From: Candidatus Methanoperedens sp.
GTDB lineage: Archaea; Halobacteriota; Methanosarcinia; Methanosarcinales; Methanoperedenaceae
NCBI GenBank assembly: GCA_027460535.1
Contig: JAPZAR010000018.1
Location: forward strand, 30,001 to 62,000
Direction: 5' to 3'
DNA: 32,000 bases
Shown here: piece after piece, positions 4,269 to 29,733 of the stretch
Numbering within the stretch: position 1 is the first letter of the stretch
How the letters are laid out: each line of letters opens with the position of its first letter
Made by a program: the position numbers and the translations under genes
Notes under the pieces: model-generated
What the model was told of the DNA's origin: nothing
The model's input: only the letters and a program-made list of their open reading frames with translations
The model's database searches: none

Positions 4269-5683
4269 TGTACGATAATCCTGACGGCGTAATGATCGGT
4301 CTTGAAGTCCATGTCCAGTTAAACAAACTCAAGACCAAGGTATTCTGCGGATGCACCACTGATTATCACAACGACCCTCCGAACTCGCATGCATGTCCTG
4401 TGTGCCTCGGGCTTCCCGGTTCCATGCCCGTGATCAATAAAAAGGCAGTGGAAGCAGCAATAAAAGTAGGGCTTGCCCTGAACTGCAAGGTTGAAGAGCA
4501 TACGCAGTTTTACAGGAAGAACTACTACTATCCCGATCTTCCGAAAGGCTTCCAGATAACGCAATATGACTTTCCCATTTCAAGCGGCGGTTACATCATT
4601 ATCGAAGGTGAGGACGGGGAGCACAGAGTCAGGATAACGAGGGCTCACATGGAAGAAGACCCCGGAAGGCTCGTGCACGAGGGCACAATAGACAAATCAA
4701 AGTACACGCTTATCGATTATAACCGTTCAGGAATGGCGCTGCTTGAGATAGTGAGCGAGCCCGATTTGAGGAGCCCGAAAGAGGCACGGCGCTATCTCGA
4801 CAAACTGCGCAATATCCTTGAATACCTTGATGTGTTTGACGGAAACCTGGAGGGCGCTCTCAGAGTGGACGCCAATATCTCCATAATGGGAGGACAGCGC
4901 GCCGAGATCAAGAACATTTCCTCGCATAAGGGCGCTGAGCGTGCGCTTCTCTATGAGATCGTGCGACAGAAGAACGTGCTGCGCCGCGGCGGCGTTGTGG
5001 TGCTGGAGACGCGCCATTTTGACGAGGCGCGAGAGATCACGCTCTCCATGCGTTCTAAGGAAGAGGCCCACGATTACCGCTATTTTCCTGAACCTGACCT
5101 TGTGCCTCTGAAGATATCAGGATGGGCGCCGGCTATAAAGGAGACGCTGCCTGAGCTGCCTGATGCCAGACGCATTCGCTTCGTGGAGCAGTATGGTGTC
5201 AAGGATGACCATGCCAAGGCGCTGACATCGGAGCTGAAACTTGCGATTTTCTACGAAGATGTGGCAAAAAAAGCCGATCCAAGAATGGCTGCTGTCTGGA
5301 TATGCGATGTGCTGAAAGGAGAGTTGAATTACCGCGACCTCACTGTAGATGCTTTCAGGAAAGAGCATATGCTCTCGGTGCTTGAGCTTCTCGCAGGCAA
5401 GAGGATAACAGAGGACGGCGCCGTGGATATTATCAGAACGCTTCTTGATAAAGGTGGCTCACCTGAAGAAATCATCAAAGAGAAAGGGCTCGTTATAGTC
5501 GAAGGGGATATCGTTGAGACTGCGGCGCTTGAAGCGATAAAGGAGAACCCGCAGGCTGTGGCAGATTTCAAAGCCGGGAAGGAAAAGGCGCTCAACTCGC
5601 TTGTGGGTGCGGTGATGAAGAAGACGAAGGGCAGGGCGGATGCGAAGGCGGCGAGGGAGGTATTGCTGGGGAAGTTGGGGTAG
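4268..5683 (+). CDS. gatB: Asp/Glu-tRNA amidotransferase subunit B
   Basis: 471 aa with GatB motifs MIGLEVHVQLN, CGC...CPVCLGLPGSMPV, YYYPDLPKGFQITQYD and AHMEEDPGRL. It is translationally coupled to gatA. Confidence 0.95.
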   Translation: MYDNPDGVMIGLEVHVQLNKLKTKVFCGCTTDYHNDPPNSHACPVCLGLPGSMPVINKKAVEAAIKVGLALNCKVEEHTQFYRKNYYYPDLPKGFQITQYDFPISSGGYIIIEGEDGEHRVRITRAHMEEDPGRLVHEGTIDKSKYTLIDYNRSGMALLEIVSEPDLRSPKEARRYLDKLRNILEYLDVFDGNLEGALRVDANISIMGGQRAEIKNISSHKGAERALLYEIVRQKNVLRRGGVVVLETRHFDEAREITLSMRSKEEAHDYRYFPEPDLVPLKISGWAPAIKETLPELPDARRIRFVEQYGVKDDHAKALTSELKLAIFYEDVAKKADPRMAAVWICDVLKGELNYRDLTVDAFRKEHMLSVLELLAGKRITEDGAVDIIRTLLDKGGSPEEIIKEKGLVIVEGDIVETAALEAIKENPQAVADFKAGKEKALNSLVGAVMKKTKGRADAKAAREVLLGKLG

Positions 5684-6776: not shown

Positions 6777-7469
6777 ATGAAACTTCTGAACAAGGTCGCA
6801 GTTGTGACTGGCGGCGGGCGGGGCATTGGTAGGGAGATAGCGCTGGCGCTTGCACGCGAGGGGGCTGATATTGCAGTCGCCGCGCGTACGGATAGAGAGA
6901 TAGGCGTCGTGGCAGCTGAGATAGAAAAGCTGGGAAGGCGCAGCCTTGCGGTACCCATGGATGTGAGGTCAATCCAGGCTGTAAAGAACCTCGTCAGGAG
7001 AACAAAAGCCGTTTTGGGAGGCATTGACATTCTTGTGAACGACGCAGGCATCGCCTTCAGAAAAACCCTAGCTGAGACTTCGAATGGAGAGTGGGATATG
7101 ATCATGGATACGAACCTGAAAGGGACTTTCCTGTGCTGCCGCGAGGTCCTTCCGGTTTTGACCAAAGGCGGTGTTATAGTCAACATCTCCTCCGGGGCTG
7201 GAAAAAGCGGTATCCCCGAGCTTTCGGCTTACTGCGCCTCCAAATTCGGCGTGATCGGCCTCACAGAATCACTGGCATATGAGGTTGCCAAAAAAGGCAT
7301 CCGGGTTTATGCTGTGTGCCCGGGTGGAGTGGATACCGGTATGCACCGCTCCCTTTACCCGGAGGATGTATCCTCGCTCCTGCGACCCGAGCATGTGGCA
7401 GCGCAAGTTCTTGAGTTGTGCCTCCCCGAATGCAGGATCGTGAGCGGCTCTTCAGTGGAGATAGCTTAA
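6777..7469 (+). CDS. short-chain dehydrogenase/reductase (FabG-like SDR)
   Basis: 230 aa with the Rossmann motif VTGGGRGIGREIALALAREGA, NISS and catalytic YCASK (YxxxK). The substrate cannot be assigned from sequence. Confidence 0.85.
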   Translation: MKLLNKVAVVTGGGRGIGREIALALAREGADIAVAARTDREIGVVAAEIEKLGRRSLAVPMDVRSIQAVKNLVRRTKAVLGGIDILVNDAGIAFRKTLAETSNGEWDMIMDTNLKGTFLCCREVLPVLTKGGVIVNISSGAGKSGIPELSAYCASKFGVIGLTESLAYEVAKKGIRVYAVCPGGVDTGMHRSLYPEDVSSLLRPEHVAAQVLELCLPECRIVSGSSVEIA

Positions 7470-8041: not shown

Positions 8042-8418
8042 TGATGAACGGATATAAACGCGGATACGCTATCACAAATCTGTGTTCATCAAGGCCGAAA
8101 CCCTGCGGGTTCTCAGACCGAAACCTAACGGTTCTCGACTCCCAAACAACACGTATGCCCTGGGGGGATATCGCATAGCGATATCCACGTATGGCGGAGC
8201 CATACGTCAAGGGTTGCGCCCCTTGAGGACGCGTCCACGTATGCCAGTACGCTGGCATACGTGTGCACGGCGTCAACTGACGTGACGGTTGTGCGACGTC
8301 AACTGGCGCAACGGTTGACGTGGATGCGCCGCTCCGAAACCCTGCGGGTTCTCGACTCCGCACACGCATATGGCAACGCCATATGCGGATACGCCCTCCC
8401 GAGGCGCGACTCGGGAGG
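8042..8418. repeat. GC-rich cluster of at least 10 short, mostly perfect stem-loops plus direct repeats (candidate structured RNA or palindromic-element cluster)
   Basis: Stems read directly from the sequence: 8042-8049/8084-8091 (8 bp); 8166-8174/8178-8186 (9 bp, loop ATA); 8187-8195/8199-8207 (9 bp, loop GGA); 8208-8213/8220-8225 (6 bp); 8236-8247/8252-8263 (12 bp, loop TACG); 8296-8303/8314-8321 (8 bp); 8365-8374/8378-8387 (10 bp, loop AAC); 8395-8403/8410-8418 (9 bp). The perfect 20-nt direct repeat ccgaaaccctgcgggttctc occurs at 8095-8114 and 8334-8353, with a variant copy at 8118-8142. Each copy is itself an imperfect hairpin. A 26-nt tandem duplication spans 8271-8322. Confidence 0.7.
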
Positions 8419-8582
8419 CTCGTGACTCTGGGCGCCATTATCTGCGGTTTCCTGACAAGGATTTCATGATAGCCTGCAACACCAAACTTTTTTACAGTCC
8501 CGCATTTTTAAGAAACTGTGTTTTGAATTTAACAGTTGTTAAATGAAGAAAATATCCCATTTTTCTGATATAATTTCATCGA

Positions 8583-8834
8583 TCACAATGCCCGGATATC
8601 ACCGCTTTCAACCACATCCGTTGGTACTCCATCAAGTTCCCCGGGCACGATGTCCTCCTCTCTTAGCTCTCTCTTTGGTTTTTTTTTCATCACATAACAT
8701 ATGATGGCGGGCTTATTTGACTTCCTGCCGCCAATGACCTTGTATCCGGTAGCGCAACCCACCACTCCTTTCTTTTTTAAAAGAGCGGATTCATACTTGT
8801 TCTTTATCCTCTTTGCTTCTTCGATTGTAGCCAT
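8583..8834 (-). CDS. small protein paralogous to the N-terminal (pro-domain-like) region of the adjacent S1 protease
   Basis: 83 aa. GVVGCATGYKVIGGRKSNKPAIICYVMKKK...IVPGELDGVPTDVVESGDIRAL aligns with residues about 18-79 of the upstream 336-aa protease (NVVGVMTGYKIRGEEKTRELSIICMVEKKV...IPKKIDDAVTDVIEVGKIRAL). It stops exactly at the shared IRAL boundary. Confidence 0.7.
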   Translation of the reverse strand: MATIEEAKRIKNKYESALLKKKGVVGCATGYKVIGGRKSNKPAIICYVMKKKPKRELREEDIVPGELDGVPTDVVESGDIRAL

Positions 8835-8860
8835 TGTTTCATCTCGATGTCGCCATCATG

Positions 8861-9871
8861 CTAACCAGTGACAAGATCTGCATTGAGAAGGTCAAGATAT
8901 TTCTGTATGTGGTTAGCTATCGTTATTGTGTCGCTTCCTGCGAAAAGCTTACCTACAGCATAGCCCTCCATATCGAGGATAAGGCTTCCGCTGTCACCAC
9001 CTGCTGAGAACCCAGGCTGGCCCACAATTATCTGATCTTTGAAAATACCTGTCCGCCCCCCGTCGTAATCGACGCTTACGGTGGCATCCACTGCTGTTAT
9101 AGGACCGTCCCTTGTAAGACCCGTGGTCCTTCCGGATTTCTGGACGTGCATATCGAGCTGTGCCGTTCTTGTTCCATTTGGAATACCAATCTCCAATATC
9201 TCCGCTTTGGCATCTCTTTCATTGTTCAACTCGATGATGGCGCCATCCACATAGTTATCCTCTGGTACCTGCACTACCGACATGAGCCTTGTCCTGCGGC
9301 TTGCTGCGCTGGCGGGGACATTGTAGAGTCCGCTCCAGAGCTTTCCGACCGGGCATTCGCTTGGAACGCCGCTGAGGTTCAAATGCACAAAGCGCAGGAG
9401 CCTGCCTATCTCATCATTTGGCCGCCTGCCGCCATCAATAGGTCCGGGCTGAAGATAGGGGTCGCCGATATTTACTTCATTGGAGTTGGCTCCCACATGG
9501 TTATTCGTGCCTATGCACAGCTTACCCGAGGCCCTGTCCCTGACCAGCTCCCCGTTTGTGCCTGCGGTTATCAGGTAATGTCCGCCGGATGTGCCCATGG
9601 GGCAGGGGCGAAGGCGCGACTTCCTGTCGACCTGCAGGGCCCTTATCTTCCCGACCTCTATGACGTCTGTAACCGCATCATCGATCTTTTTAGGAATGAG
9701 GTCACCTGATTTCAGCGCTGATACTTCGACTTTCTTTTCCACCATGCAGATTATACTCAGTTCCCTGGTCTTTTCTTCTCCTCTTATCTTATAGCCCGTC
9801 ATCACGCCGACGACATTTGCCTTCTGTAAGAGCATTTTTTCAGATTTTATTCTTATTTCTTCCAATTTCAT
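8861..9871 (-). CDS. trypsin/chymotrypsin-fold (S1, PA clan) serine protease with N-terminal pro-domain-like region
   Basis: 336 aa. Candidate triad contexts are GTNNHVGANS (His), NYVDGAIIEL (Asp) and FSAGGDSGSLILD (the GDSGS serine motif). KSGRTTGLT is also typical of this family. Confidence 0.8.
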   Translation of the reverse strand: MKLEEIRIKSEKMLLQKANVVGVMTGYKIRGEEKTRELSIICMVEKKVEVSALKSGDLIPKKIDDAVTDVIEVGKIRALQVDRKSRLRPCPMGTSGGHYLITAGTNGELVRDRASGKLCIGTNNHVGANSNEVNIGDPYLQPGPIDGGRRPNDEIGRLLRFVHLNLSGVPSECPVGKLWSGLYNVPASAASRRTRLMSVVQVPEDNYVDGAIIELNNERDAKAEILEIGIPNGTRTAQLDMHVQKSGRTTGLTRDGPITAVDATVSVDYDGGRTGIFKDQIIVGQPGFSAGGDSGSLILDMEGYAVGKLFAGSDTITIANHIQKYLDLLNADLVTG

Positions 9872-10461: not shown

Positions 10462-10644
10462 TTATTGCGCTCCTGACTTCATGAGCCTCTGCACAGCCTG
10501 GTTGCCTATAGTTCTTTGAAGAAAGAGAATTTGTTCAACAGGTGAACTGAGTGGCTGGCAGAAATTACCTTTCTGCACCTGTGATACCTGATTCTCTTTT
10601 TTTGTCTCGGGTGCTTTGACCGCTGTCTTGAAAGCTTCGCCCAT
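10462..10644 (-). pseudogene. orphan truncated effector leader (first 59 codons of the DUF4157-type leader, then loss of homology and a stop)
   Basis: MGEAFKTAVKAPETKKENQVSQVQKGNFCQPLSSPVEQILFLQRTIGNQAVQRLMKSGAQ* matches residues 1-59 of the 663/712-aa proteins. Nucleotide homology to the other copies ends at about 10465. Confidence 0.75.
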
Positions 10645-10731
10645 TTGTTATTTCCCTAAAAATTAAATGTTCATATATAGATTTATTAGCTCTTAACACT
10701 TCAAACTGCTAAGAAAATTGTAAAGACTATT

Positions 10732-10923
10732 CTATGGACTTCCAGCCTCTACTCCGTTTGATTTTAACTTTGAAATCGCATAAATTTTTTTGTTATCCTG
10801 AGACATCTTTTCAATCTTTTTCTGGTTAATGACCTTTGCCTCATAATCATTCCAAGCAAACCATTTTTGATTATTCTCGCAGTAAAACAAATTTAGGCTG
10901 GGTATAGGGTTAATTCTTACCAA
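10732..10923 (-). pseudogene. 3' fragment of a YkgJ-type Cys-cluster gene (remnant copy A)
   Basis: CENNQKWFAWNDYEAKVINQKKIEKMSQDNKKIYAISKLKSNG matches the C-terminus of the intact 218-aa gene at 15462..16118 (CENNQKWHVWNDYEAMVINQEMMEKISQDNSKIYAISKSKSNG). The upstream part of the ORF is unrelated sequence. Confidence 0.7.
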
Positions 10924-10965
10924 AATTTTTGCAAAATAGGAAGCAGCTCTAATTCGTTTAAGCTT

Positions 10966-13104
10966 TTACAAACCATCAAGGAATTCTAGTGCTATTCGCC
11001 TTCTTTCGACAAAATCAGGCAGATATGAACCTGGTATTAATCCTGTTATTTCATAGCGGTAACGAATAAAATCTTTATTCTGTCGCAAGAAATTTCTTAT
11101 CTCATCAATCCATTCTTCATGACCAGCTTCTCGATAAACTTGCGCATGGGCATCAAAAACGTCATTAATATCAAAGAATGTTTTTCTCGGAAGATGACTT
11201 GGTACTTCGGCAGAGAAGTAGGCATGATCGCCTGCCTCCAGAGCAACACTACGGCCTTTTGCCGTTGGGATTCCAAAATATTCCATTAACCTATCTTCAA
11301 GCAGATGGTGGGCTTCAATTGTACTTTCATCTATTCCACGCCGTCCTGTAAGTCCTGTTTCTCTTACATAATTGAGGACCTCATCGTAATTTCCAAATAT
11401 ATCTCCTTTAGGCCTTATCTCCACTGTTGGGTATCTAGCGTCAGGCCATATTGCTTTTGAAGGGCCCATTGGCTTATAACCAGCCTTTATTAGTTGTTCA
11501 TACATCGGCGAGAATGTCTCTCGAGCCGTTACCGCTACAGGTTCTACCTCTCGTACTCCAGCAGAGGCGAATTCATCCATGCGCCTTATTATGAGTTCTG
11601 CCTTGTTTAGCTCCTCTGCTGGAATTTCACCCCCCTGGCGTATTAAGAGAGTCCAACTTGAGATCCGACTTCTTTCTGCTTGAGTTAGATTTGAAGCAGC
11701 TTTAACAATATCTGCAATTTCGTCGGGGTGACGTCCAATTGATTTAGCTATACGTGTTGCTCCACGCAGGGCACCACCCCCTGCTAATGGAAGTAAAGCG
11801 CCAATTCCCATTAAAACTAAATCTGTTCCAGTTAAGGGTCGTCCCCATTTATCATAACCTTCAAAAATTCCATAAAAAAATTCTGCAATATCTGTGAGGT
11901 CACCTACTACAGGTATTAATCCTATGGCAGTGTCGGTGATTGCTTTTGCAAAAATTTGTTCATTTGGTTCATAGTAAGTCGCTTCAAAAGTTGTCAGTTG
12001 ACGCCCAACAGGCTTAATCGATGTCCCTTGAACAGGCACTTGAGTAACACTAGGAACCTCATATACTTCTAAAATGGGATCCGCTAATTCAATGTTTCCC
12101 AATACAACTTCTTGCTTGGGGGTTTGAGCTTCTGTTGCTCTATTTACGAAAAATTTTGTGGAAGGTGTTTTTACTACTTTTATTATAGATACATTTTTAG
12201 GATAACTAAGAGCCAAAGGGTTAGCTGGAATCAATTCATAGGCGAAGCGAGCCGTGCCCAAAAAACTTGGTGCTGTGATTTCAAATACATCCCCTGAAGC
12301 CGTGTGTATTATATCAATCCCATCAGGGCGTTTCTTGACAACAAGAGGAGGAGGACCTGCTACTCCGTAAACAGGTTGCATTCCTACATAATGTGATGGA
12401 ATTACTGGATCTCCCTGAAGTGGAACAAGTGCAGGGTCTTGGACGCGATAAATTTCAAGTGATGGATACTTGGGACCTAAAATACATAACTCTGGATAAC
12501 CTTCTGTCCGAATTGAAACCCCTGGTGCAACTACTAACCGAATGATTGGATAATCCCTTTTTTCAAACGAAGTTAAGAATTGATAAGCAAATGGTGCTTT
12601 TGCGATTCTCACTTCAGGACTTACTTCTAAAATCACGCGTATTTCAGAAGTAAAATATCTATAAATTAATGTACCGCCCGATGGAGATACCCTGGCATCA
12701 AAAGAGTATTCTGTTGGTATTGTATATATAGCGGTCTCGGTTCCTTCTTCTTTTATCGGTTGCCGCTTCAGTTCATCATTTTCACATTTCGGGCATGCCC
12801 TCTGAATGCTGGGTGTACCGCTGGATACTGCCTGCGGCTGCGGCATCCTCATCACCGCATCCGCTACCCTGTCAGCTTCCCGCTCATAAACATCGCCGGG
12901 CGCGCCTATCCTGAGCTTTGCCTGTAGCGCTCCTGACTTCATGAGCCTCTGCACAGCCTGGTTGCCGATGGTTCTTTGAAGAAAGAGAATTTGTTCAACA
13001 GGTGAACTGAGTGGCTTGTATAAATTACCTTTCCGCACCTGCGAAACCTGATTCTCTATTTTTTTCTCAGGCGCTTTTACCGTTGTCCTGATTGCCTCAC
13101 TCAT
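10966..13104 (-). CDS. polymorphic-toxin-like effector: shared N-terminal leader, tandem beta-rich domains, pre-toxin TG-like domain and a C-terminal module with an AHH motif
   Basis: 712 aa. Residues 1-120 share the leader (LFLQRTIGNQAVQRLMKSG, EREADRVADAVMRM, CPKCENDELKRQPIKEE), but the HExxH DUF4157 core is missing. LIPVVGDLTDIAEFFYGIFEGYDKWGRPLTGTDLVLMGIGALLPLAGGG resembles the PT-TG pre-toxin domain. IEAHHLLEDR lies in the C-terminal module. AGGAGA Shine-Dalgarno 6 nt upstream of the ATG. Confidence 0.8.
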   Translation of the reverse strand: MSEAIRTTVKAPEKKIENQVSQVRKGNLYKPLSSPVEQILFLQRTIGNQAVQRLMKSGALQAKLRIGAPGDVYEREADRVADAVMRMPQPQAVSSGTPSIQRACPKCENDELKRQPIKEEGTETAIYTIPTEYSFDARVSPSGGTLIYRYFTSEIRVILEVSPEVRIAKAPFAYQFLTSFEKRDYPIIRLVVAPGVSIRTEGYPELCILGPKYPSLEIYRVQDPALVPLQGDPVIPSHYVGMQPVYGVAGPPPLVVKKRPDGIDIIHTASGDVFEITAPSFLGTARFAYELIPANPLALSYPKNVSIIKVVKTPSTKFFVNRATEAQTPKQEVVLGNIELADPILEVYEVPSVTQVPVQGTSIKPVGRQLTTFEATYYEPNEQIFAKAITDTAIGLIPVVGDLTDIAEFFYGIFEGYDKWGRPLTGTDLVLMGIGALLPLAGGGALRGATRIAKSIGRHPDEIADIVKAASNLTQAERSRISSWTLLIRQGGEIPAEELNKAELIIRRMDEFASAGVREVEPVAVTARETFSPMYEQLIKAGYKPMGPSKAIWPDARYPTVEIRPKGDIFGNYDEVLNYVRETGLTGRRGIDESTIEAHHLLEDRLMEYFGIPTAKGRSVALEAGDHAYFSAEVPSHLPRKTFFDINDVFDAHAQVYREAGHEEWIDEIRNFLRQNKDFIRYRYEITGLIPGSYLPDFVERRRIALEFLDGL

Positions 13105-13117
13105 TTGTTATCTCCTT

Positions 13118-13344
13118 GAAATTAATCGCATAAATCTTCCTTTTATCTTGATTGATAATTTCCTGGTTAATCACCTTTGCCTCATAGTCATTCCAGACAT
13201 GCCATTTTTGATTATTCTCGCAGGTAAAACCCCTGCACGGCACAGGGTGGTGGTCGCAATGCGCAGCGGTAGGTCTTCCTGTCTATATGAACGCAGTAGC
13301 CATCAGTATCGTGTGCGATAAGATATGGTCTTCCGAACTCCCAT
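13118..13344 (-). pseudogene. decayed fragment of the YkgJ-type gene (remnant copy B, frameshifted, terminal codons and intergenic region deleted)
   Basis: The nucleotide sequence aligns with 15486-15722 (for example gccatttttgattattctcgcaggtaaaacccctgcacggcacaggg). A small deletion relative to the intact copy shifts the frame (...gcattgcgaccaccaccctg versus ...acagtgcgcgaccaccgccctg). The track shows no ORF here. Confidence 0.7.
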
Positions 13345-13368
13345 CCTGCCTGACTGACTCAAAACAAG

Positions 13369-15360
13369 TCAATAATGTTGTTTGGGTATGAAATCTCCTG
13401 TTGCAGCTTTGGCGGCTTCATTTCGACCAATCACGTCTTTCTTGTAAATTTTAGCATCCGTCCCCGATCCATTATATGCTTCTATGGCAGCGTCCCAATC
13501 CTTAACTCCGTTTCTTTTTTCAAACAACCACCGAACTGCCGTGCGAATCCAGTAGTCATAATCGAGATTTCGGGCTTTGGTCGTTTCAGTAAAGAATTCC
13601 TCAACTGCTGATTCCCATCGCGTGTCCGTGGTGAAGAAAACGTTCCAGCGATCGCCGTTTTTAGATCGAGAATTGATCGTATCCAATTCCGACTTTTCCG
13701 CGGGCGTTATTGATTTGCCTTTTGCTACAAGTTTTTTTCTGCGTGCTTGAGCATCAAACATATCTTTAGTTACCTGATCGAGATTGTGTTTGATCGCGAT
13801 AGCTGGACTTATTTCCTTGATCATCAAAATTTGCTGATCTCCAGAGCTATCAATAGCCTGACCTATATTGAAACGGGTCATCCGTTGCCCTTTCGTATAT
13901 GGTGGAAGTTTGAGGAAATCTCCCAGTGTCCCCATGTGGGACTCCTGATACAACATTGATTTCACCAGGCTGGCATCCAATGCAAGCCATTTCTTTGGCG
14001 AACCGATGTTCTTATTGTAAAACGCTACCCATTTTACAATACTTGCATCGAAAGCATTGAACATGGTTTCTTCTATCAAAGCTTTGTTCAGTAATGTGCT
14101 TTGTGGGATGATGGGAATTTTTATTCCATCTGCTTCTATTTTCAAATATTCGGGAAGTGTAGCAGAGGTGTATCCTTCTCCCGTCAACTTGTATTTCAAA
14201 TCTTTAAGTTCGGTTTGCTTCACATTCATCTGGCGCTGCCATTCGGCTTTTCCATTGTCGGTCGTATACTTTTTTTCCTCTGCCTTCCAATCAGACACTA
14301 CTTTTTCCTGATCGCTGATTTTCTTTTCGAGTACGGCATATTTTTTTTCTATGCTCGCAACACCTGCATGGTATTGAGATAAGCCCGATTTGGTGTCGCC
14401 TGCTGGAACCAGAATATTTTTCTCGATAGTGACGGAGGTAACTTTACTGCCTGATGTGAAATTGGCAGTGACTGAGGTTTTGGTGTTCGACCATGCAGTA
14501 ATGACCACACTGCTTCCTTTGGGAAGAGTAAGGTCAGAAACCTTCAACTCTTTGTTGAGTATAAACATTTTCCCGATCATCTCTTCCACGGCATCTTCGG
14601 GTAGGAATCGCTGAACAATTCCAAGGCTCGATAGTCCTTGTTGCACAACATGCGTAAGCTCATGTGCCAGCAACTGCCGCCCATCAAGCGTTCCGGGCGC
14701 ATACTGCCCGGCTCCAAAGGCCACATCCTTGCCTACTGTAAATGCGAGTGCATTCAAATCCCTCGCAGACTTTGCAGCCCTTTCGTCTGTATGCAACCTC
14801 ACCTTAGTGAAGTCATGACCGAATCGTGGCTCGAAAAAGGCGCGGTCGTTTTCTGATAAAGACTGCCCTCCACCCTTGAGGGACTGGATTTTTGATTCAA
14901 TATCAGGATTTATTTCAGAGATACCACCAGAAGTTGTCTTCCCCTGAAGCTCTTCCTCCTCTTCTTCGACTGGTTTCCTTTGCAGCTTCTCCTCTTCGTC
15001 TTCTTCTTTTATCGGTTGCCGCTTCAGTTCATCAATTTCACATTTCGGGCACATCCTCTGGATGGAAGGTGTACCACCGGATAACGCCTGCGTCTGCGGC
15101 ATCCGCATCACTGCATCCGCTACTCTGTCAGCCTCCTGCTCGTAAACATCGCCTGGCGCGCCTATCCTGAGCTTGGCCTGCAGCGCTCCCGACTTCATGA
15201 GTTTCTGAACAGCCTGGTTGCCTATAGTTCTTTGAAGAAAGAGAATTTGTTCAACTGGTGAACTGAGTGGCTGGTAGAAATTACCTTTCTGCACCTGTGA
15301 AATCTGATTCTCTTTTTTTGTCTCTGGTGCTTTGACCGCTGTCTTGACTGCTTCGCCCAT
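13369..15360 (-). CDS. DUF4157-type effector: shared leader, acidic linker, HExxH DUF4157 domain, coiled coil and a C-terminal lysozyme/SLT-like domain
   Basis: 663 aa. Leader as above, then RAFFEPRFGHDFTKVRLHTDERAAKSARDLNALAFTVGKDVAFGAGQYAPGTLDGRQLLAHELTHVVQQG (DUF4157-type core). The C-terminal region carries SMLYQESHMG, NIGQAID and AIEAYNGSG, which resemble lytic-transglycosylase motifs I-III. Confidence 0.85.
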   Translation of the reverse strand: MGEAVKTAVKAPETKKENQISQVQKGNFYQPLSSPVEQILFLQRTIGNQAVQKLMKSGALQAKLRIGAPGDVYEQEADRVADAVMRMPQTQALSGGTPSIQRMCPKCEIDELKRQPIKEEDEEEKLQRKPVEEEEEELQGKTTSGGISEINPDIESKIQSLKGGGQSLSENDRAFFEPRFGHDFTKVRLHTDERAAKSARDLNALAFTVGKDVAFGAGQYAPGTLDGRQLLAHELTHVVQQGLSSLGIVQRFLPEDAVEEMIGKMFILNKELKVSDLTLPKGSSVVITAWSNTKTSVTANFTSGSKVTSVTIEKNILVPAGDTKSGLSQYHAGVASIEKKYAVLEKKISDQEKVVSDWKAEEKKYTTDNGKAEWQRQMNVKQTELKDLKYKLTGEGYTSATLPEYLKIEADGIKIPIIPQSTLLNKALIEETMFNAFDASIVKWVAFYNKNIGSPKKWLALDASLVKSMLYQESHMGTLGDFLKLPPYTKGQRMTRFNIGQAIDSSGDQQILMIKEISPAIAIKHNLDQVTKDMFDAQARRKKLVAKGKSITPAEKSELDTINSRSKNGDRWNVFFTTDTRWESAVEEFFTETTKARNLDYDYWIRTAVRWLFEKRNGVKDWDAAIEAYNGSGTDAKIYKKDVIGRNEAAKAATGDFIPKQHY

Positions 15361-15722
15361 TGTTATTTTCCTAAATTAAATATTCTCATATGTATATAAT
15401 AACTTTTAACATCTCAAACTGCCAAGAAAATTGCATGACTATTCTATGTACTTCCAACCTCTCATCCATTTGATTTTGACTTTGAAATCGCATAAATTTT
15501 ACTGTTATCCTGAGATATCTTTTCCATCATTTCCTGGTTAATGACCATTGCCTCATAATCATTCCAAACATGCCATTTTTGATTATTCTCGCAGGTAAAA
15601 CCCCTGCACGGCACAGGGCGGTGGTCGCGCACTGTGCAGTGGTATGTATTCCTGTCCATATGAACGCAGTAGCCATCAGAATCATGTGCGATAAGATACG
15701 GTCTTCCGAACTCCCAGCGGAT
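14626..15722 (-). repeat. reference copy (C) of the dispersed effector-junction repeat: ykgJ-like 3' end, intergenic region, leader, acidic linker and DUF4157 core
   Basis: Its parts recur at 10462-10925 (copy A), 12745-13344 (copy B) and 17641-18375 (copy D, without the ykgJ part). Long stretches are near-identical at nucleotide level, for example ggttgcc-nnn-gttctttgaagaaagagaatttgttcaac and ttcttttatcggttgccgcttcagttcatca. Confidence 0.85.
15361..15461 (-). promoter_or_regulatory. conserved AT-rich intergenic region with a TATA-like box upstream of the effector leader
   Basis: Read on the minus strand: ...aaaagttattatatacatatgagaatatttaatttaggaaaataacaATG. A homologous copy precedes the orphan leader (10645-10731). 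The segment is deleted upstream of the 712-aa gene (13104). A promoter role is inferred only from the AT box and position. Confidence 0.3.
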
Positions 15723-16118
15723 GATGCCCTCATCCACATCCTGTTTAGACAGGGCAAAAGGAAATTTGCAGCACATAGCCTTGCATGTATGCAGCCTGCT
15801 CTCGCAGTCCACTTGGGTTTCATGTTCGAACGTGTATTTGTCTTCCTCCGGATCCTGATACATAAGTCCCATGCCACTCTCTACGAACTTCTTTACCAGC
15901 CGCTCTGCGACCTGATTTTTCCGCTTGTCCAGTTCCTCGATCGAGATCAATCCCTTTTCGCTGAGCAGTTCGATGACTGCATAGAGGAATGAGGTTGATT
16001 CTAAGGTTTTTTTGGTATTGGAATTGATGCGGGTGTGGGTGTAGAGCAGACCTTCGGCTAATTCCTTGTGTTCTTCACGCAATAGCTCTTTATTTCTAAT
16101 TTGAGTTTCTGTTTGCAT
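15462..16118 (-). CDS. YkgJ/UPF0153-family Cys-cluster (CxxCxxCC-type) putative Zn/Fe-binding protein
   Basis: 218 aa. VDCESRLHTCKAMCCKF...DSDGYCVHMDRNTYHCTVRDHRPVPCRGFTC fits the YkgJ pattern (C..C..CC ... dG.C ... C.i...RP..Cr). Its 3' end is duplicated at 10732-10923 and 13118-13344. Confidence 0.75.
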   Translation of the reverse strand: MQTETQIRNKELLREEHKELAEGLLYTHTRINSNTKKTLESTSFLYAVIELLSEKGLISIEELDKRKNQVAERLVKKFVESGMGLMYQDPEEDKYTFEHETQVDCESRLHTCKAMCCKFPFALSKQDVDEGIIRWEFGRPYLIAHDSDGYCVHMDRNTYHCTVRDHRPVPCRGFTCENNQKWHVWNDYEAMVINQEMMEKISQDNSKIYAISKSKSNG

Positions 16119-16482
16119 AAATATCTTTTTTCCAATTAAATTGCTTAATGAACTTTTTAAGAAAGGAATTTAATGTGGCAAATTACGAAAGGATTAATCA
16201 ACGCATTGCATTATAGGCATTAAAGCGGAAACTTCTACAAAACAAAATGCGGCCGATCTCTTGCATGCACGGATGAGTAAGTTCAACATCCATCCTGCTC
16301 ATACTCACTTACCGCATTCTCTTCACGATACCGGAAATATAGTTGATCGATGGAGCTACAAGTCCCCGGCCTTTTGCGGGCATACGGACTTCAAAAGGGG
16401 TCGACCTGGCCCAAGAATGAAAACATCAAAGCCCCCAGAATAACTATTCCTGGAATGTGCGATAAATTAGCCATTTGGCTTT

Positions 16483-18375
16483 TTAATAATGCCCCAGCTC
16501 AGCCTTGGGTAAATCGAGCTCATTAATGAAAGGCACATTTCCAGACCGCCTATGTTGCAAGACCCAAAAAGCAATGAGTGCCGGTGAATACAAATCGGTT
16601 GTGTCAACTCCGAAATCATCACAAATAAGATACTGGAGTTCTATGTCATAGATGCGCAAGCTGAGATTGATACTAAAACGCGTAATACGGATACTTAAGC
16701 CCTGGGTTCCACCGATGATAGCTTTCAACGCCGTGCTGTCTGAGAAACCAAAGCTAACAGCAGGAACTCCCGCCGTGGGTAGAGTGATAGCGTTGCAATC
16801 GATCACTCCCGCAGCATCCATGCTAGTCAGCTGACGTTCGATTTCCCGGATCACGCTAGCGTGCAAGCGCGAGAAAGTCCCTGAAACAAGCGCATCCGCG
16901 CCCAGTGTACTGGAACTGTCATGAGTAAGCTTGGTTCCCGTGCCACCAGAGAAATGGGTCACCATCCTCAACCCCTCCGCACCAGCTAGTCCGCCCAGTT
17001 CCAGGCGCATGCGGTTACGTAACTGGAAATCGAGAGTAAGGTGGTCAGCCTCCCATACAGCTGCCTGTTGTGCAACATTAGTACCTTTTAGTGGAGGAAA
17101 ATCATTAGATCTAAAATCTGCATCCGCACCACAAGCTCCACGGTTAAAGATCTCTCTGGGCATAGCAGTACAGGGAATAACCCTAGTCTGTATCGGCCTT
17201 GGCGGAATCAGATTAGGAGAGCCTCCTCGCATCTGTATGGAGACACGTCGGTTTGGAGAATATGATGCTGCAAATTCAGAGGTTTCGCCATGGGCAAACA
17301 TTTCTATATCGGAGGCAGGTATACCAAGTCCTCCGCTCGCCGGGCTCATAAGTGCGTTTTTGACAGCCATGGCGCGGTTGCACGAGAGAGTCCAGTTGAG
17401 GGAATCGGTACCTTCGGGGCTGGCGTAACCATCAAGACGTAAATTCTCGTTAGCGCCAGAAGCGTGCCAATTGTTAACAAAGTTGTCGATGGCAGTCTCG
17501 TCACTGGAGCTCAGGTTAGCACTGTTTACTCGGAATATGATGTCTAGATTAGAGACACCAGGAGAGTCATGCGCGATTGGGCAGGCAAGACCACTGGGTA
17601 ATTGGCTTGGATCACCTATGCGCTGAATTTGCGGTTGCACCAAGCCACCACTTTGTTGCACCGCATGCGTCAACTCATGCGCAATTAACCGCTGTCCCTC
17701 GATCGTTCTAGGTGTATACTCCCCCGCTCCGAAAACCATATCGCTGCCGATAGTGAACGCCCGCGCATTCACCGCTCGAGCCATTTCAGCCGCCCGTGTA
17801 TCTATGTGCAAACGCACCTGGCCGAAATCCTGGCCAAAACGCGGCTCGAAAAAGGCGCGTTCGTTTTCTGATAAAGGCATGCCTCCTCCTTTGAGAGACT
17901 GGATATTTGATTCGATATCAGGATTTAATTCAGAGATACTACCTGATGTTGCTTTCGCCTGAAGCCCTTCCTCCTCTTCTTCTACTGGTTTCCTTTGCAG
18001 CTTTTCTTCTTCGTCTTCTTCTTTTATCGGTTGCCGCTTCAGTTCATCATTTTCACATTTCGGGCAAGCTCTCTCGATGTTGGGTATACCACTGGATGAT
18101 GCCTGCGGCTCAGACATCCTCATCACTGCATCCGCCACCCTGTCAGCCTCCTGTTCGTAAACATCGCCGGGCGCGCCTATCCTAAGCTTAGCCTGCAGTA
18201 CACCGGATTTCATGAGCTTCTGGACAGCCTGGTTGCCAATCGTTCTTTGAAGAAATAGAACTCTATCAACCGGTGAAATTCTGGTTTTTGAACAACATGG
18301 CTTTCTGGTCTTTGATACAAAATTCTGACTATTTGCCTCATGCTTTTTAACTTCTATTCTAGATATATTGCCCAT
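16483..18375 (-). CDS. DUF4157-type effector: shared leader, acidic linker, HExxH DUF4157 domain, OmpA-like peptidoglycan-binding domain and an unknown C-terminal domain
   Basis: 630 aa. RAFFEPRFGQDFGQVRLHIDTRAAEMARAVNARAFTIGSDMVFGAGEYTPRTIEGQRLIAHELTHAVQQSG is the DUF4157-type core. IIFRVNSANLSSSDETAIDNF...LRLDGYASPEGTDSLNWTLSCNRAMAVKNAL...IEMFAHGETSEF...PNRRVSIQM is OmpA_C-like. GGGAGG lies 5 nt upstream of the ATG. Confidence 0.88.
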   Translation of the reverse strand: MGNISRIEVKKHEANSQNFVSKTRKPCCSKTRISPVDRVLFLQRTIGNQAVQKLMKSGVLQAKLRIGAPGDVYEQEADRVADAVMRMSEPQASSSGIPNIERACPKCENDELKRQPIKEEDEEEKLQRKPVEEEEEGLQAKATSGSISELNPDIESNIQSLKGGGMPLSENERAFFEPRFGQDFGQVRLHIDTRAAEMARAVNARAFTIGSDMVFGAGEYTPRTIEGQRLIAHELTHAVQQSGGLVQPQIQRIGDPSQLPSGLACPIAHDSPGVSNLDIIFRVNSANLSSSDETAIDNFVNNWHASGANENLRLDGYASPEGTDSLNWTLSCNRAMAVKNALMSPASGGLGIPASDIEMFAHGETSEFAASYSPNRRVSIQMRGGSPNLIPPRPIQTRVIPCTAMPREIFNRGACGADADFRSNDFPPLKGTNVAQQAAVWEADHLTLDFQLRNRMRLELGGLAGAEGLRMVTHFSGGTGTKLTHDSSSTLGADALVSGTFSRLHASVIREIERQLTSMDAAGVIDCNAITLPTAGVPAVSFGFSDSTALKAIIGGTQGLSIRITRFSINLSLRIYDIELQYLICDDFGVDTTDLYSPALIAFWVLQHRRSGNVPFINELDLPKAELGHY

Positions 18376-22007: not shown

Positions 22008-22184
22008 TTTTTCACCACCTTAAATCACATAATCAGATTTGGTTTTTAATGTACAGACCTCTTACTTGAAAGTCCAGAGGTATCAGTGTTAGTTCTGTCA
22101 ATTTTTTGGGATTTCTATAGTCTACCTGATCTTTTTGATTTGATTCAGGCGCGGGTACGGAATTGAATAATAATGAATATTTAC

Positions 22185-22988
22185 TCAGATGATATTGGTG
22201 TCAGTAAGCCACATATCCATCGTTGAAGTAAATTTATCGTAAAGGCCACCACCGGTAAAGACCGAAGTTCCAGAACGATAGAAGCCACCGAATCCAATAT
22301 GTGGCAGGTAATATTCGCGCACAATATAATCGTGGGATTGATCATCACATGTTTCCACACCCGCAGTTATCTGACACATCGGTTTATAATAACGTTCGGA
22401 AATTACTACTGCGGGACGATTGTTGATTGTGGTCTCGCCTATAGATTTCTTACGATTCAGCGGAAAAATAACCTATGAAACCTTCATCGTCATGTGAGTC
22501 AAACAGTCTAGCTGCCCTATGGTTAGTGCCATCATATTAACCGATATAAATGACTCCATCTCTTGAAGCCAAATATTTCACTTTGTTAATAGATAATGGA
22601 TAACTATCACCGGACAGCGTGTATTTGATGCGATGAAAGGTTATTTCACCCAAATCAGTCATGTCCCAAATTTCAGAATCGGTCAATTCTATAATTAAGG
22701 TTCCAGATATTGTGGGGTCACCAGAAGAAGCATACTCCCACGAATATTTCCAGTAGGCACCCTTAAATAATTTGATATCATCAAAACCTTTGTAAAGGAA
22801 AGTAGGTGACTTGCTGGTAGGGGTCTCAGTTATAGTTGGAGTGTTCCCTCTCTTGTATGATGTTGTAGTTGGTTGAGTTTCTTTATCGTTTCATTCCATA
22901 CAGCTTTTTCTTGCACACAGCCACTTATAAAAACAACTACACTCGTCAATAATCCCAAGAACATTATCATTCTTAATTTATTAATCAT
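22185..22988 (-). pseudogene. decayed lipoprotein gene (two frameshifts plus an in-frame stop)
   Basis: The ATG at 22988 gives MINKLRMIMFLGLLTSVVVFISGC (signal peptide plus lipobox Cys), and that frame stops at 22830-22832. The coding signal continues one frame over from about 22890 (NDKETQPTTTSYKRGNTPTITETPTSKSPTFLYKGFDD...ASRDGVIYIG). It is interrupted by TAA at 22537-22539 and continues (YDGTNHRAARLFDSHDDEGFIGYF). It then shifts frame again near a T5 run at about 22470 (...NRKKSIGETTINNRPAVVISERYYKPMCQITAGVETCDD...TDTNII*, ending at 22185). The 22185..22379 track ORF is only the last piece. Confidence 0.55.
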
Positions 22989-23122
22989 ATTCCCACCATC
23001 ATTTTAATTATATTACCTAAGTAAATATTTTTCGAAAGATAAAAGCGCGTTAAGAGCAAAGTGGAATATTATTTTTGAGAGAAATGAAATATAGTTTCCT
23101 ATACGTCAATAATCCAATTTCT

Positions 23123-23353
23123 TCACTCTGTTATTGGCTCAGATTTAGGAATTCTTTCTAACTGGCTTGTGCTAACCGACTCTATCTGCCTCTCTTTCAC
23201 CAGTTCCTCTTCAAGCACCTGGATCGCACCACTGATGCGCAGCAGTGTGTTCCTCAGGTTCGCCTGTTTAATTTCCAAGTCGGAGAGTGCTTTTTGACCT
23301 GATTCGAATTCGGTTCTCAGTTCTTTGAGACGATGCTCTAATCGTTCTTTCAT
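23123..23353 (-). CDS. small coiled-coil protein downstream of the tail fibre (possible fibre accessory or chaperone)
   Basis: 76 aa with heptad-like, Leu/Glu/Lys-rich sequence (LKELRTEFESGQKALSDLEIKQANLRNTLLRISGAIQVLEEEL). A strong AGGAGG lies 7 nt upstream of the ATG, 13 nt after the tail-fibre stop. Confidence 0.6.
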   Translation of the reverse strand: MKERLEHRLKELRTEFESGQKALSDLEIKQANLRNTLLRISGAIQVLEEELVKERQIESVSTSQLERIPKSEPITE

Positions 23354-23366
23354 AATTCAACCTCCT

Positions 23367-26300
23367 TCAACTTGAATATACGAATATATCGATAACCCCT
23401 TTTCCTGACTCATGCCTATCAAGGGCTTTTCCTATAATCGTTCCTGGTCGAAATAATTCTTCACCTTTAATTTTTATAGGACTGGCTTTCATAGCATGAC
23501 CAGGGATTGAAGAAGATGTTAATAAATTTCCCCTTTTTATCGGACCATTTTCATCAACAACTTTACAGGGAACACGACCACACAGGGCAACAGGAAATAC
23601 CTTTTCACCGTCACGCTTTGTATTTAACAAGAATCCAGGTGCAGTCGATATAACTCCGAGGACTAAACAGTCATCCGGCTTTTCCGATATGATGATTCTA
23701 TCCTCGTCCTGGTCCAAACGAACAACATCTCCAGGTTCAAGATCCATATCTGAAGAATAGTTCTCAGCTAGGTCGCCAACCAAACCGGTTTTGAAACCAT
23801 AACTTGAATACATTGTTCCCTCTGCTTGCACATCACCTGCAACATGCAGCGCGCATACTGGGTCCGTTGTCATGATGCCGACGTAGCCTTTATTATAGTA
23901 AATACGCCCGGCGATAGAACCATCAATCCATTTGCTTGCGCCAAAAATATTTTTTAATCCTGAGCCATCGCCAACAAACGCATCCGCCTTAACTGTACCG
24001 ATGACTTCTAATTCTTTTGATGGCGTTATCGTACCGATGCCGACATTTCCTTTATCGTAATAGATACCGCCAGCAGCATCAGACCATTTGCCTGCGCCTG
24101 TTAACTGTGAGCCATCGCCTATGAATTTCGTTGCGCTGACAGTTCCATTAACTGATAAATCGCTGGCAGCATAAGCGTTCCCCACGAAGATATTGCCATT
24201 AATATCAATTCTCATTTTCTCTTTACCGTTTATCCTAAACTCCAGACCTTGAGAATTGCCTTTGACATCAATGTATGAAGTATCATCGTTATCTCCCTTG
24301 ATATCCAGACAGATTTCTCCCTCATCACCGAGACGCAGATGGCTACCGTTCCAACGCCTTCCGAGTAGCGTTAAAGAAGGATAACCATTGCCGATGATTA
24401 AAAGCCCTTCCTTATCATAATCATCTGGAACATATTGATCTTCGCCTGCATAAGTAAATTCGCCAATCTGGAGCTTTCCTGATGGGCTCTTTGTACCGAT
24501 GCCGACGATGCCATTATAAAAAATACTATCAGGGACTGCACCATCTGACCATTTGCCTTCATTGATACCTGTTAATCCTGATCCATCGCCTATGAACTTA
24601 TCTGCCTTAATGGTGCCTATAACAGATAGTCTATCGGTTGCAGATGGTGGTGTCCCGATACCCACGTTGTTCTTATAATAAATCCCGGCAGGGTCGCCGA
24701 GCCATTGGGTTTTACCGGTTAACTTCGAGCCGTCACCTATGAACTCCTTGGCTTTGACAGGGCCGTCAACGTATAAATTACCTAATAATTCCACATTACC
24801 CTTTCCATCAATACTGATTCTGATCAATTCCCGGGTCATGAGATAAATAGAATTGGACCCACCCATCGAGTTAATTTGCAGGCCACCTCCACCAGTACCT
24901 TCAGCCTGAATCCTGATATCGCTGTTTGTATCCTCAGTCGAAAGCCTTAATGCGTAACCGTCATTGCTTTTCACATCTAACCCATAACCTGGCGTGGATG
25001 TGCCAATGCCAACATTGCCTTTATCATAATAAATCCCGGCAGGGTCATTGAGCCATTGGCTGGCTCCTGTTAACTGCGAACCATCACCTAAGAACACATC
25101 TGCTTTAACAGTGCCGGCGACCTCTAATTCATTTGACGGCTTATCCGTCCCGATACCGACATAGCCGCCATTACGGTTTATATAAGTATTTGCAGCGCTA
25201 TTATTTATTAACAAGGCTTCAAGCTCTTTTGACCAGAGAATATCCGCTTTCTGTGTGCCATCTTCATAGAAAGATATCACCGGGTCGGGTATGAATTCTG
25301 CCAGCATTGGTACGGGGGCCGGACTGGAACCATGGATCCTGACATAATCACCTGACATAGAATCAATCGGTTGAACAAGAAGATCCCCGTTCCTTACTTC
25401 AAGTTTTGATTCCGGATTCAGCGTCCCAATACCGACATTCCCCATAATCTCGGCATTTTCGGCTAAATTCAATGTATCTCCTGAGAATCCAGATGCATTA
25501 ATGTTAGTGGCTTTAACTGTGCCATTAACGTGCAGTAGTTTTTCAGATGGTTCATCGATACCTATGCCAACATTGCCATCGTTATCAACAATCAGGGCAG
25601 GGTCAGGAGAGCCGTCTGAACCCACGAGTTTGCTGTGCTTATGGAGTTCATCTGCAATTGAAGCATCGGTCAATTTAAGCACATTGTCACCGTAAACTAA
25701 ATCTAACAAATTATTTTCAAGACCGATTTTCCATTTGCTATTTTTCTCAATAGCCTCCTCTCGCCATATTATCTGGGCATTTGGTGCTGTCCCACCCCGA
25801 TAAACCTCTAAACCGCCATCACCAATAAGCGGTTTTTTATTCCCGGGGGGTGGATAATCATGTACTGTAATGATATTGTCTGAAATTACTACTCCTTCTT
25901 TCCGGGTCCCTTTGACTGTAAGATTACCATCAATCGTACAATTACCATCGACTGCCAGATTTTTATCACCCGGATCAGATGTGCCTCCGATGTGCAGACC
26001 GCCGGGCATCCCGCTTTTTACCTCAAGCGTCCCATTAACAGTGCAATTGCCATCTACGACCAGATTTTTATCACCCGGCTCAGACGTGCTTCCGATACGA
26101 AGACCGCCTGTGAAATTCGTTAAAGGAGAATTGATTTGAATCCCGTTTTCAGCATCAAACTTCTTTCCCTCGATAGAAAGTGCGCTTTCTTCCCCATCCA
26201 CAGATAGCGCCAGTTTACCGTAGGCTCCAGCATAAATGCGGTCTTCATTTTCGATATGGACATGTCCATCTATCAATTTGACCTTTGCCAGTATGATATG

Positions 26301-26771: not shown

Positions 26772-26843
26772 ATTTTTACCTCCTTGTTTTATTATAATCA
26801 TTTCTCTTAATATCTTTAAACTCACTCGATTTCCATTGACAGA

Positions 26844-29712: not shown

Positions 29713-29733
29713 GTGTTGCCTCGAAAGAAAAAA

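Follow-up and report, generated by a model that had tools for sequence, protein, structure and literature searches.

A probable injection-system cargo array on one shared leader in Candidatus Methanoperedens, apparently remodelled by recombination at module boundaries

Polymorphic toxins of the PVC type have a constant N-terminus and a variable C-terminus and occur in several copies per genome, archaea included (Zhang, Aravind et al., 2012; PMC3482391, section 13). Autoproteolytic release by the PVC-metallopeptidase has been proposed for them, immunity genes are frequently lacking, and Tox-OmpA joined to the PVC-metallopeptidase is among the listed architectures (PMC3482391). The DUF4157 domain was described as a core marker of extracellular contractile injection systems (eCIS) that lies N-terminal to toxins at the operon 3′ end (Geller, 2021; PMC8213781). 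In AlgoCIS, the two cargo proteins are similar in their N-terminal domain, deletion of which abolishes loading, while deletion of DUF4157 does not (bioRxiv 10.64898/2026.05.27.728243). Loci of contractile injection systems (CIS) are on record in anaerobic methanotrophic (ANME) archaea and in Methanoperedens (PMC12180501; PMC13444090), and whether archaeal contractile injection systems target bacteria has been stated as an untested open question (PMC12352652). Here, we describe a tandem array of three large genes, E1, E2 and E3, and a terminal leader stub in a 32,000-nucleotide stretch of DNA (the window) from Candidatus Methanoperedens, in which every relevant gene lies on the minus strand; NCBI gives the identical E3 protein the name Candidatus Methanoperedens sp. 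Most probably, the array encodes injection-system cargo built on one shared leader and has been remodelled by recombination at module boundaries.

Protein alignment supports the claim of the first-pass annotation that the three genes and the stub begin with a common leader of about 120 residues, as residues 1-120 are shared by E1, E2 and E3 and the stub holds the first 59 codons of the same leader. At the DNA level this claim narrows, because codons 1-33 of E1 are 46% identical to the other leaders, which is about random and hence non-homologous, and E1 enters the shared block at about codon 34-41. The leader thus has two parts, a short variable head that ends at codon 33 and a conserved core that spans codons 34-120. 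Homology of E1 and E2 then runs on through an acidic linker, which has no tandem repeats of note, and the PF13699 (DUF4157) domain to about residue 243, close to the residue of about 245 first proposed. Both proteins match PF13699 (E ~5e-30) and carry the HELTH (HExxH) motif, which makes them PVC-metallopeptidase proteins; the Pfam search of E3 gave no PF13699 match, and E3 is assigned to the cargo class solely through its shared leader and the adjoining DUF4157 genes. E3 parts from E1 and E2 directly past ...KRQPIKEE, as had been annotated at nt ~12745, and the DNA breakpoint falls at nt 12744/12743: the 52 nt before it hold one mismatch among the three copies, and identity in 30-nt windows is 100% over codons 111-120 and drops beyond them to 40% and then 23%.

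The repeats and breakpoints were mapped by self-BLASTN as had been described. The matching segments are 14638-15262 and 17653-18277 (80%, E 9e-165), 10467-10888 and 15183-15601 (89%, E 5e-155), 12744-13125 and 15000-15379 (87%, E 1e-130), 13124-13343 and 15486-15716 (86%), and 10467-10666 and 12927-13125 (88%), with E-values from 1e-17 to 1e-165, far past chance. To call the leader stretches nearly identical was, however, an overstatement, since the repeats are 80-94% identical and contain identical blocks of only 30-50 nt. The later leaders are each preceded by a junction consisting of a YkgJ-like gene and an AT-rich intergenic region, which, in agreement with the first-pass annotation, is intact before E2 (15361-16118), truncated before the stub, and deleted and frameshifted before E3. 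The copy before E3 (remnant 1) carries a frameshifting 2-nt deletion and a 9-nt deletion, and is found by tblastn as two pieces in different frames; in addition, about 106 nt more were lost than first noticed, a deletion that took the YkgJ 3′ end together with the bulk of the intergenic region and left 21 nt. Remnant 2, before the stub, begins at ~10888-10908, that is, at YkgJ codon ~168-172. The homology of the stub stops at 10467 with a TAA immediately there, and about 190 nt of AT-rich spacer follow up to the next gene.

Such a layout could be suspected of being a chimeric join or repeat expansion, since the sequence was assembled from short metagenomic reads and contains repeats of 0.2-0.6 kb. 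However, two further ENA assemblies are 100% identical to the window over the whole array (over 15.1 kb and 10.8 kb, all repeats spanned), there is also an NCBI record of a metagenome-assembled genome, repeats of this degree of divergence are easily resolved, and a relative has the same layout. Therefore, the shared-leader array is real, and an assembly artefact is very unlikely, the least probable of the explanations weighed here.

Sequence comparison finds the C-terminal regions of the three proteins mutually unrelated. The best BLASTP match among them has E ~1, and the divergence first described also holds in sensitive profile comparison, as hhalign of the alignments trimmed to the C-terminal regions gave a probability of at most 0.8% among the three payloads; the trimming was introduced because untrimmed alignments merely recovered DUF4157 from the N-termini of homologues. 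For every payload a separate set of homologues exists elsewhere, and many of these carry a fused DUF4157 domain. These results bear on the simplest alternative, namely that E1, E2 and E3 arose by plain tandem duplication and then drifted apart as paralogues, with no cassette exchange, which their adjacency, same orientation and common 5′ region would fit. However, identity falls from 100% to random inside one or two codons, profile similarity among the C-terminal regions is absent, and each C-terminal region is closer to proteins of other organisms, bacteria included, than to its neighbours. The breakpoint, profile and homologue tests have thus already refuted tandem paralogy, to which we assign hardly any probability.

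Related genomes reveal the same module with other cargo. In the related locus L015 (~85% nucleotide identity), an E1 orthologue is followed by a YkgJ-like gene, by a leader-DUF4157 region and then by a different C-terminal region of 846 aa, the homology to the window stopping at E2 codon 240; its last effector is followed by a YkgJ remnant and an 84-codon leader stub, orthologous to the remnant-plus-stub of the window. The cargo slot is therefore bracketed by the same repeats and filled with other cargo. Because the L015 orthologue of E1 has another (type-A) 5′ end, codon 33/34 represents an additional exchange point. In L003, the YkgJ-like gene, intergenic region and leader are 89.4% identical to those of the window over 1036 nt and divergent beyond, L007 has a 21-codon YkgJ remnant ahead of an effector, and L005 has a 325-aa gene in which the leader is present and DUF4157 absent. 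Among the 14 complete effectors (at least 400 aa; 11 from the metagenome scan described below plus E2 of the window and those of L015 and L005) that directly follow a YkgJ-like gene, 13 unrelated C-terminal groups were distinguished. This payload turnover behind the same YkgJ-leader-DUF4157 module supports cassette exchange, and a constant N-terminus with a variable C-terminus is found both among paralogues and at orthologous positions. The recombination at a conserved 5′ module first proposed is accordingly upheld as cassette exchange, by sharp breakpoints and by turnover, while unequal crossover was not distinguished from other routes.

A more distant relative, L014, has an E2 orthologue (80% nucleotide identity) followed by a YkgJ 5′ fragment (aa 31-144), with another degraded YkgJ copy upstream (positions 4009-4588 and 11046-11408 of that locus), which suggests that complete effector-YkgJ units once alternated and decayed later. 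The stub has kept an intact start codon, upstream region and frame both in the window and in L015 (6401-6655), lineages ~15-19% diverged, and its truncation points differ (59 codons in the window, about 75-83 codons in L015); decay, a homology arm or an expressed peptide were not told apart for it, at low statistical power.

The leader and its neighbouring modules have separate histories. When E1 is compared with E2, the leader core (0.52) and the linker (0.43) show lower synonymous divergence than DUF4157 (1.54), and the pair is therefore a mosaic of segments with different histories; the dN/dS of the leader (0.14-0.19) indicates purifying selection on it. A search with the leader family gave 535 matches. 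Most of the leader relatives among the matches listed carry PF13699 and varied C-terminal domains, namely OmpA, VanY, PG_binding_1, YkuD, M23, CHAP with GH24 lysozyme, and Ntox domains; the VanY-bearing relative (P0085) is named Methanoperedens by NCBI. For 12 of the 119 relatives listed there is no PF13699 match on record, and most of these align via the leader, six via the E3 C-terminal module. The leader also occurs without DUF4157, as in E3 and the 325-aa gene of L005. Its motif IGxPxDxYEQEADRVA (residues ~60-88) also goes with DUF4157 in homologues of other cargo families, so that this part of the leader is not system-specific; a literature search with the leader motif strings returned no matches. 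L003 also has a leaderless 289-aa DUF4157 gene (8228-9097 of that locus) beginning exactly in the acidic linker (MKEEEEEKLQRKPVEEEEE...), the mirror image of the E3 breakpoint, which marks the acidic linker as a module boundary. In the loci L050-L064 from JGI Ga0255xxx metagenomes, which represent one population (for example, L050:1106-1840 vs L052:3581-4477), the effector following the YkgJ-like gene is 202-301 aa long and the leader match lies 139-301 nt from the DUF4157 match; with this variation in length and spacing, the linker looks hypervariable, or the genes are decaying.

The YkgJ-like protein matches PF03692 (CxxCxxCC) with E 4e-4 and 21.4 bits, under the cut-off of 23, and has no NCBIfam match; the YkgJ-type label, just under the Pfam threshold, is plausible on sequence grounds. 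Its gene is under strong purifying selection (dN/dS 0.17-0.18), and in L003, L015 and L005 orthologues that are 92%, 87% and 81% identical immediately precede DUF4157 effectors. A metagenome scan with the protein yielded 55 loci, in which a leader starts within 300 nt downstream of 30 of the 61 YkgJ 3′ ends with enough downstream sequence; in these 30 cases, the gene has the same orientation and lies 28-175 nt upstream of the leader. It could therefore be asked whether the YkgJ-like protein is a functional partner of type-A leaders (adaptor, chaperone or modifying enzyme) and the junction a duplicated two-gene unit, on the model of the adaptors of type VI secretion systems (T6SS), which are likewise encoded upstream of effectors. 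The frequent close linkage, its preservation in the window, L003, L005 and L015, where the pair is placed differently with respect to the CIS operon, the purifying selection, and the conservation of the sequence (92%) while the payload varies, which fits recognition of the leader and not of the payload, all speak for such a partnership. On the other hand, the gene also stands alone among housekeeping genes (MCM, IleRS) in two loci, E1 and many other effectors have no YkgJ-like gene upstream, extra copies are readily lost via frameshifts and deletions, and the sub-threshold Pfam match gives no hint of a chaperone function. We therefore regard a functional partnership as unlikely, if deserving of serious consideration, and lean towards the remnants being mainly hitchhiking scars of segmental events.

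Regarding the payloads, E1 bears an OmpA-like peptidoglycan-binding domain, followed by a conserved C-terminal domain of ~250 aa with no assigned function, the family of which comprises 43 homologues from archaea and bacteria, mostly fused to DUF4157. By analogy, at least E1 appears to be aimed at bacteria, because such a domain would address a target that the archaeal producer would not have. The C-terminal family of E2 has 35 homologues, again mostly DUF4157-fused. The very confident AlphaFold2 model of the E2 payload (predicted local distance difference test score, pLDDT, 93.4; predicted template modelling score, pTM, 0.89) shows an SH3-like barrel, a long helical hairpin and a helical domain; weak Foldseek matches were obtained for the small SH3-like barrel only and none at E<=1e-3 in PDB or BFVD for the large helical domain, which may, according to the model, represent a novel toxin fold. 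The E2 family has invariant motifs that recall SLT (QES, IGQ, AYNGSG and Y). An SLT-type lytic transglycosylase was considered for the E2 payload and rejected, as Pfam and a profile search of PDB sequences gave no match and no Foldseek match reached E<=1e-3.

E3 is, judging by its homologies, itself a mosaic. Its residues 126-511, a pre-toxin-like module containing a weak DUF4112/PT-TG-like motif, are 40% identical to residues 459-846 of a DUF4157-bearing protein of 966 aa (P0002), in which the module stands behind DUF4157, and the same module lies straight at the N-terminus of a Thermomonospora protein. The E3 tail matches 74 representative clusters, always at the extreme C-terminus, in proteins of 66-1715 aa, with PF13699 in 4 of the 9 long members; E597, H599, H600, H627, Y657 and E664 (EAHHLLED...EH) are invariant or near-invariant in it. 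The EAHH...H pattern prompted consideration of an AHH/HNH-type nuclease, for which Pfam and PDB give no support and which remains a lead. The E3 model is poor (pLDDT 58), and its Foldseek matches are meaningless.

No immunity gene was found in the gaps after E1, E2 and E3 (364, 25 and 43-77 nt), which hold short out-of-frame open reading frames (ORFs) only. This bears on a further explanation, in which the array would be a classical kin-competition locus of the contact-dependent inhibition (CDI)/Rhs type, with an expressed toxin and its immunity gene followed by silent, swappable orphan cassettes. The constant N-terminus, variable C-terminus, recombination scars and truncated distal copy would all be expected of such a locus. 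However, no plausible immunity ORF stands behind any effector, every displaced copy has its own start codon and full leader and is thus complete and not an orphan, and the stub is a 5′ fragment and not a 3′ toxin/immunity cassette; toxins of the PVC type, moreover, often come without immunity genes (PMC3482391). The lack of immunity genes and of 3′ orphan cassettes therefore argues that this is not a classical CDI/Rhs-type locus, an origin that we consider improbable, and the parallel with polymorphic toxin loci drawn in the first-pass annotation is apt for the PVC/eCIS type and not for CDI/Rhs. To judge from the envelopes of Methanosarcinales in general, the producer would have no peptidoglycan, and the lack of immunity ORFs is understandable if the archaeon that makes the cargo does not itself possess its targets, such as peptidoglycan.

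The array lies in an injection-system context (Table 1). The two baseplate-J-like genes match Baseplate_J in Pfam (E 3e-12 and 6e-8), the 697-aa baseplate ORF of the window belongs to a longer gene call with a 1686-aa product, and a weak match to the N-terminus of the CIS13 family occurs among the CIS genes. CIS_tube, Phage_base_V, PAAR and GPW_gp25 genes lie on the same contig upstream of the window, and the structural components of an eCIS (tube, spike/PAAR, gp25, baseplate J and fibre genes) are thus present; sheath and AAA+ genes were seen only in the related loci L005 and L007, and not in the stretch fetched from the present strain. The array is on the same strand as the fibre gene and about 5 kb 3′ of it, a position corresponding to the 3′ end of an eCIS operon. 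It had been placed directly downstream of the baseplate and fibre genes; the same-strand CIS context stands, whereas genes for 76-aa, 154-aa, M48-like 577-aa and TPR 327-aa proteins lie between. Past the stub, the window encodes a membrane protein of 118 aa and a protease resembling Nal1 and, at a greater distance, has housekeeping genes, gatCAB among them. An Rfam scan of the window found no RNA family.

Table 1. Features of the array, its modules and the neighbouring injection-system genes in the window.
Feature	Position (nt)	Strand	Evidence
E1 cargo gene, 630 aa	16483-18375	-	
E1 shared leader core, codons 34-120	~18016-18276	-	
E1 DUF4157/eCIS_core, aa 167-244	17644-17877	-	PF13699, E 5.6e-30
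E1 OmpA-like peptidoglycan-binding domain, aa 281-377	17245-17535	-	PF00691, E 2.7e-10
YkgJ-like Cys-rich gene, intact, 218 aa	15462-16118	-	
AT-rich intergenic region between YkgJ-like gene and E2, part of the repeated junction	15361-15461	-	alignment
E2 cargo gene, 663 aa	13369-15360	-	
E2 leader	15001-15360	-	
E2 DUF4157, aa 168-242	14635-14859	-	PF13699, E 5e-30
E2 C-terminal region, 420 aa	13372-14631	-	
YkgJ remnant 1 (= YkgJ nt 403-633)	13124-13343	-	BLASTN, 86% to 15486-15716
Remaining 21 nt of junction, abutting E3 start codon	13105-13125	-	BLASTN and alignment
E3 cargo gene, 712 aa, without DUF4157	10966-13104	-	
E3 leader	12745-13104	-	
E3 conserved pre-toxin-like module, aa 126-511	11572-12729	-	
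E3 conserved C-terminal domain, ~190 aa	10969 to ~11571	-	
YkgJ remnant 2, last ~50 codons inside 63-codon ORF	10732-10908	-	BLASTN, 89%; tblastn, aa 168-218
AT-rich intergenic region, second copy	10645-10731	-	alignment
Leader stub, 60-codon ORF	10462-10644	-	protein alignment
CIS structural genes in window, whole block	23367-31827	-	
Baseplate-J-like gene, C-terminal part of large gene	29734-31827	-	Pfam Baseplate_J
Second baseplate-J-like gene	27853-29712	-	Pfam Baseplate_J
Tail_P2_I-like gene	26844-27860	-	Pfam Tail_P2_I, E 7e-12
Fibre-like gene, 1152 aa	23367-26825	-	
M48-like polytopic membrane protein, 577 aa	19813-21546	-	
TPR protein, 327 aa	18664-19647	-	

Several side observations concern the flanks of the array. 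The array of L005 is likewise flanked by an M48/M56-like gene, there with PspA genes. The 1.36 kb stretch 22008-23366 has a longest ORF of 76 aa (23123-23353), a coiled-coil ORF that other assemblies annotate as a gene, and 79% identical DNA occurs in L015 at 7208-7358, downstream of its stub, which suggests that the surroundings of the array have been rearranged. On the immediate downstream side of the array, 8861-9871 encodes a serine-protease-like protein with weak matches to the Nal1 N- and C-terminal domains, and an adjacent 83-aa ORF encodes a small NAL1_N protein.

Based on these results, we propose that the cargo genes follow one plan, namely a leader of ~120 aa, an acidic linker, an optional DUF4157/PVC-metallopeptidase and an unrelated C-terminal payload. 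If the cargo behaves like AlgoCIS Cgo1/Cgo2 and the PVC payloads, its leader would serve as the signal for loading into the tube, recognized during particle assembly; by similar analogies, DUF4157 would act as an accessory or self-processing peptidase, and the C-terminal region would be the toxin delivered to the target cell. The array would have been built and remodelled by recombination at codons 33/34, at codons 120/121 and at the end of DUF4157, and the YkgJ-like gene upstream of type-A leaders would most likely have been dragged along, leaving truncated or frameshifted remnants. Together with the terminal leader stub, these remnants make up direct repeats of 0.2-0.7 kb on both sides of the cargo slot, which could be used as homology arms in further exchanges. 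E3 has lost its own upstream region and is therefore probably co-transcribed with E2. As for the exact recombination pathway, unequal crossover, homologous import and decay of once-complete YkgJ copies cannot be told apart.

Several points weigh against this proposal. Leader copies within the genome are 88-92% identical, no closer than those between genomes (85-90%), so recent unequal crossover within the present genome is not shown by the leader identities, and an old duplication or import from relatives fits equally; concerted evolution is not supported, on the same grounds. For disorder of the leader, the one measure is a composition proxy, which gave 62% disorder-promoting residues in residues 1-120. 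The OmpA-like domain of E1 does not by itself prove a bacterial target, Foldseek searches of PDB and BFVD with the E2 model gave nothing at E<=1e-3 that would indicate a payload function, and E3 beyond the leader matches no Pfam family, which leaves its payload likewise without a functional assignment. In L011 and L012, the loci from two species in which the YkgJ-like gene sits amid housekeeping genes, no effector lies within 6-7 kb, and its linkage to leaders in about half of cases leaves a pure hitchhiker role not proven. The reading of the array as shared-leader cargo remodelled at module boundaries nevertheless retains our good confidence.

A bolder reading would join these elements, in that the YkgJ-remnant/intergenic/leader repeats, terminal stub included, would be working homology arms of integrase-free cassette capture and no mere debris, the YkgJ-like protein a dedicated accessory (adaptor or modifier) of type-A leaders and the cargo directed at bacterial walls; we hold this combination to be speculative and rather doubtful. 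If true, it would mean that Methanoperedens swaps and stacks eCIS cargo and wields an archaeal injection weapon against bacteria. In either case, the locus offers a clean natural example, base by base, of how an eCIS cargo repertoire is assembled. The leader-only E3 fits the result that the N-terminal region alone governs loading, and points to a stretch of ~120 aa as a minimal tag with which archaeal or related eCIS might be engineered. The OmpA-like domain of E1 and the leader relatives with VanY, M23, YkuD and CHAP/lysozyme domains bear on the question of bacterial targets raised in PMC12352652 and provide testable candidates in an environmentally important methane oxidiser. The three payload families, represented by the tail of E1, the helical domain of E2 and the tail of E3, are uncharacterised candidate toxin domains.

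Compared with described systems, the array resembles the PVC-type polymorphic toxins (PMC3482391) in its constant HExxH-bearing N-terminal region and highly variable C-terminal toxin domains, in the several genes per genome, euryarchaea included, that lie beside phage-tail-like secretion genes and often have no immunity genes, and in E1, which has the listed Tox-OmpA plus PVC-metallopeptidase architecture. In contrast to them, the recombining module here is the leader and linker upstream of the metallopeptidase, E3 has no metallopeptidase, and the array keeps DNA-level scars in the form of YkgJ remnants and a leader stub. With the eCIS-associated toxins (EATs; Geller, 2021, PMC8213781; Danov, 2024, PMC11297309) it shares the position at the operon 3′ end and DUF4157 either N-terminal or in a neighbouring gene, and archaeal methanogen relatives with several EATs have been noted; E3 illustrates the second arrangement, with DUF4157 confined to the neighbouring gene, and all three payload families are candidates. 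The order of N-terminal domain, DUF4157 and variable C-terminal domain is also that of AlgoCIS Cgo1/Cgo2 (Xu, 2022, PMC8894135; 2026 preprint), where the cargo of one system is likewise similar in its N-terminal domain and the dispensable DUF4157 fits the leader-only E3; unlike AlgoCIS, the present array has an archaeal host, three full genes plus a stub, and an interspersed Cys-rich gene, and the likeness described here is one of architecture. As in CDI/Rhs orphan arrays, alternative toxin modules accumulate in tandem via recombination in conserved regions, with conserved fragments providing homology, whereas the polarity is reversed here (conserved part 5′, copies complete), immunity genes are lacking and the leftover is a 5′ stub.

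In conclusion, systems of this class have been described before (Zhang, 2012; Geller, 2021; AlgoCIS Cgo1/Cgo2), and this locus is a well-preserved example of them and not a new kind. Its new contributions are modest: module boundaries resolved to the base, a leader-only cargo without DUF4157, three uncharacterised payload families, the recurrent flanking of the cargo slot, across Methanoperedens, by repeats made of YkgJ remnant and leader stub, and computational support, at the level of sequence, for cargo directed at bacterial cell walls in an archaeal eCIS.

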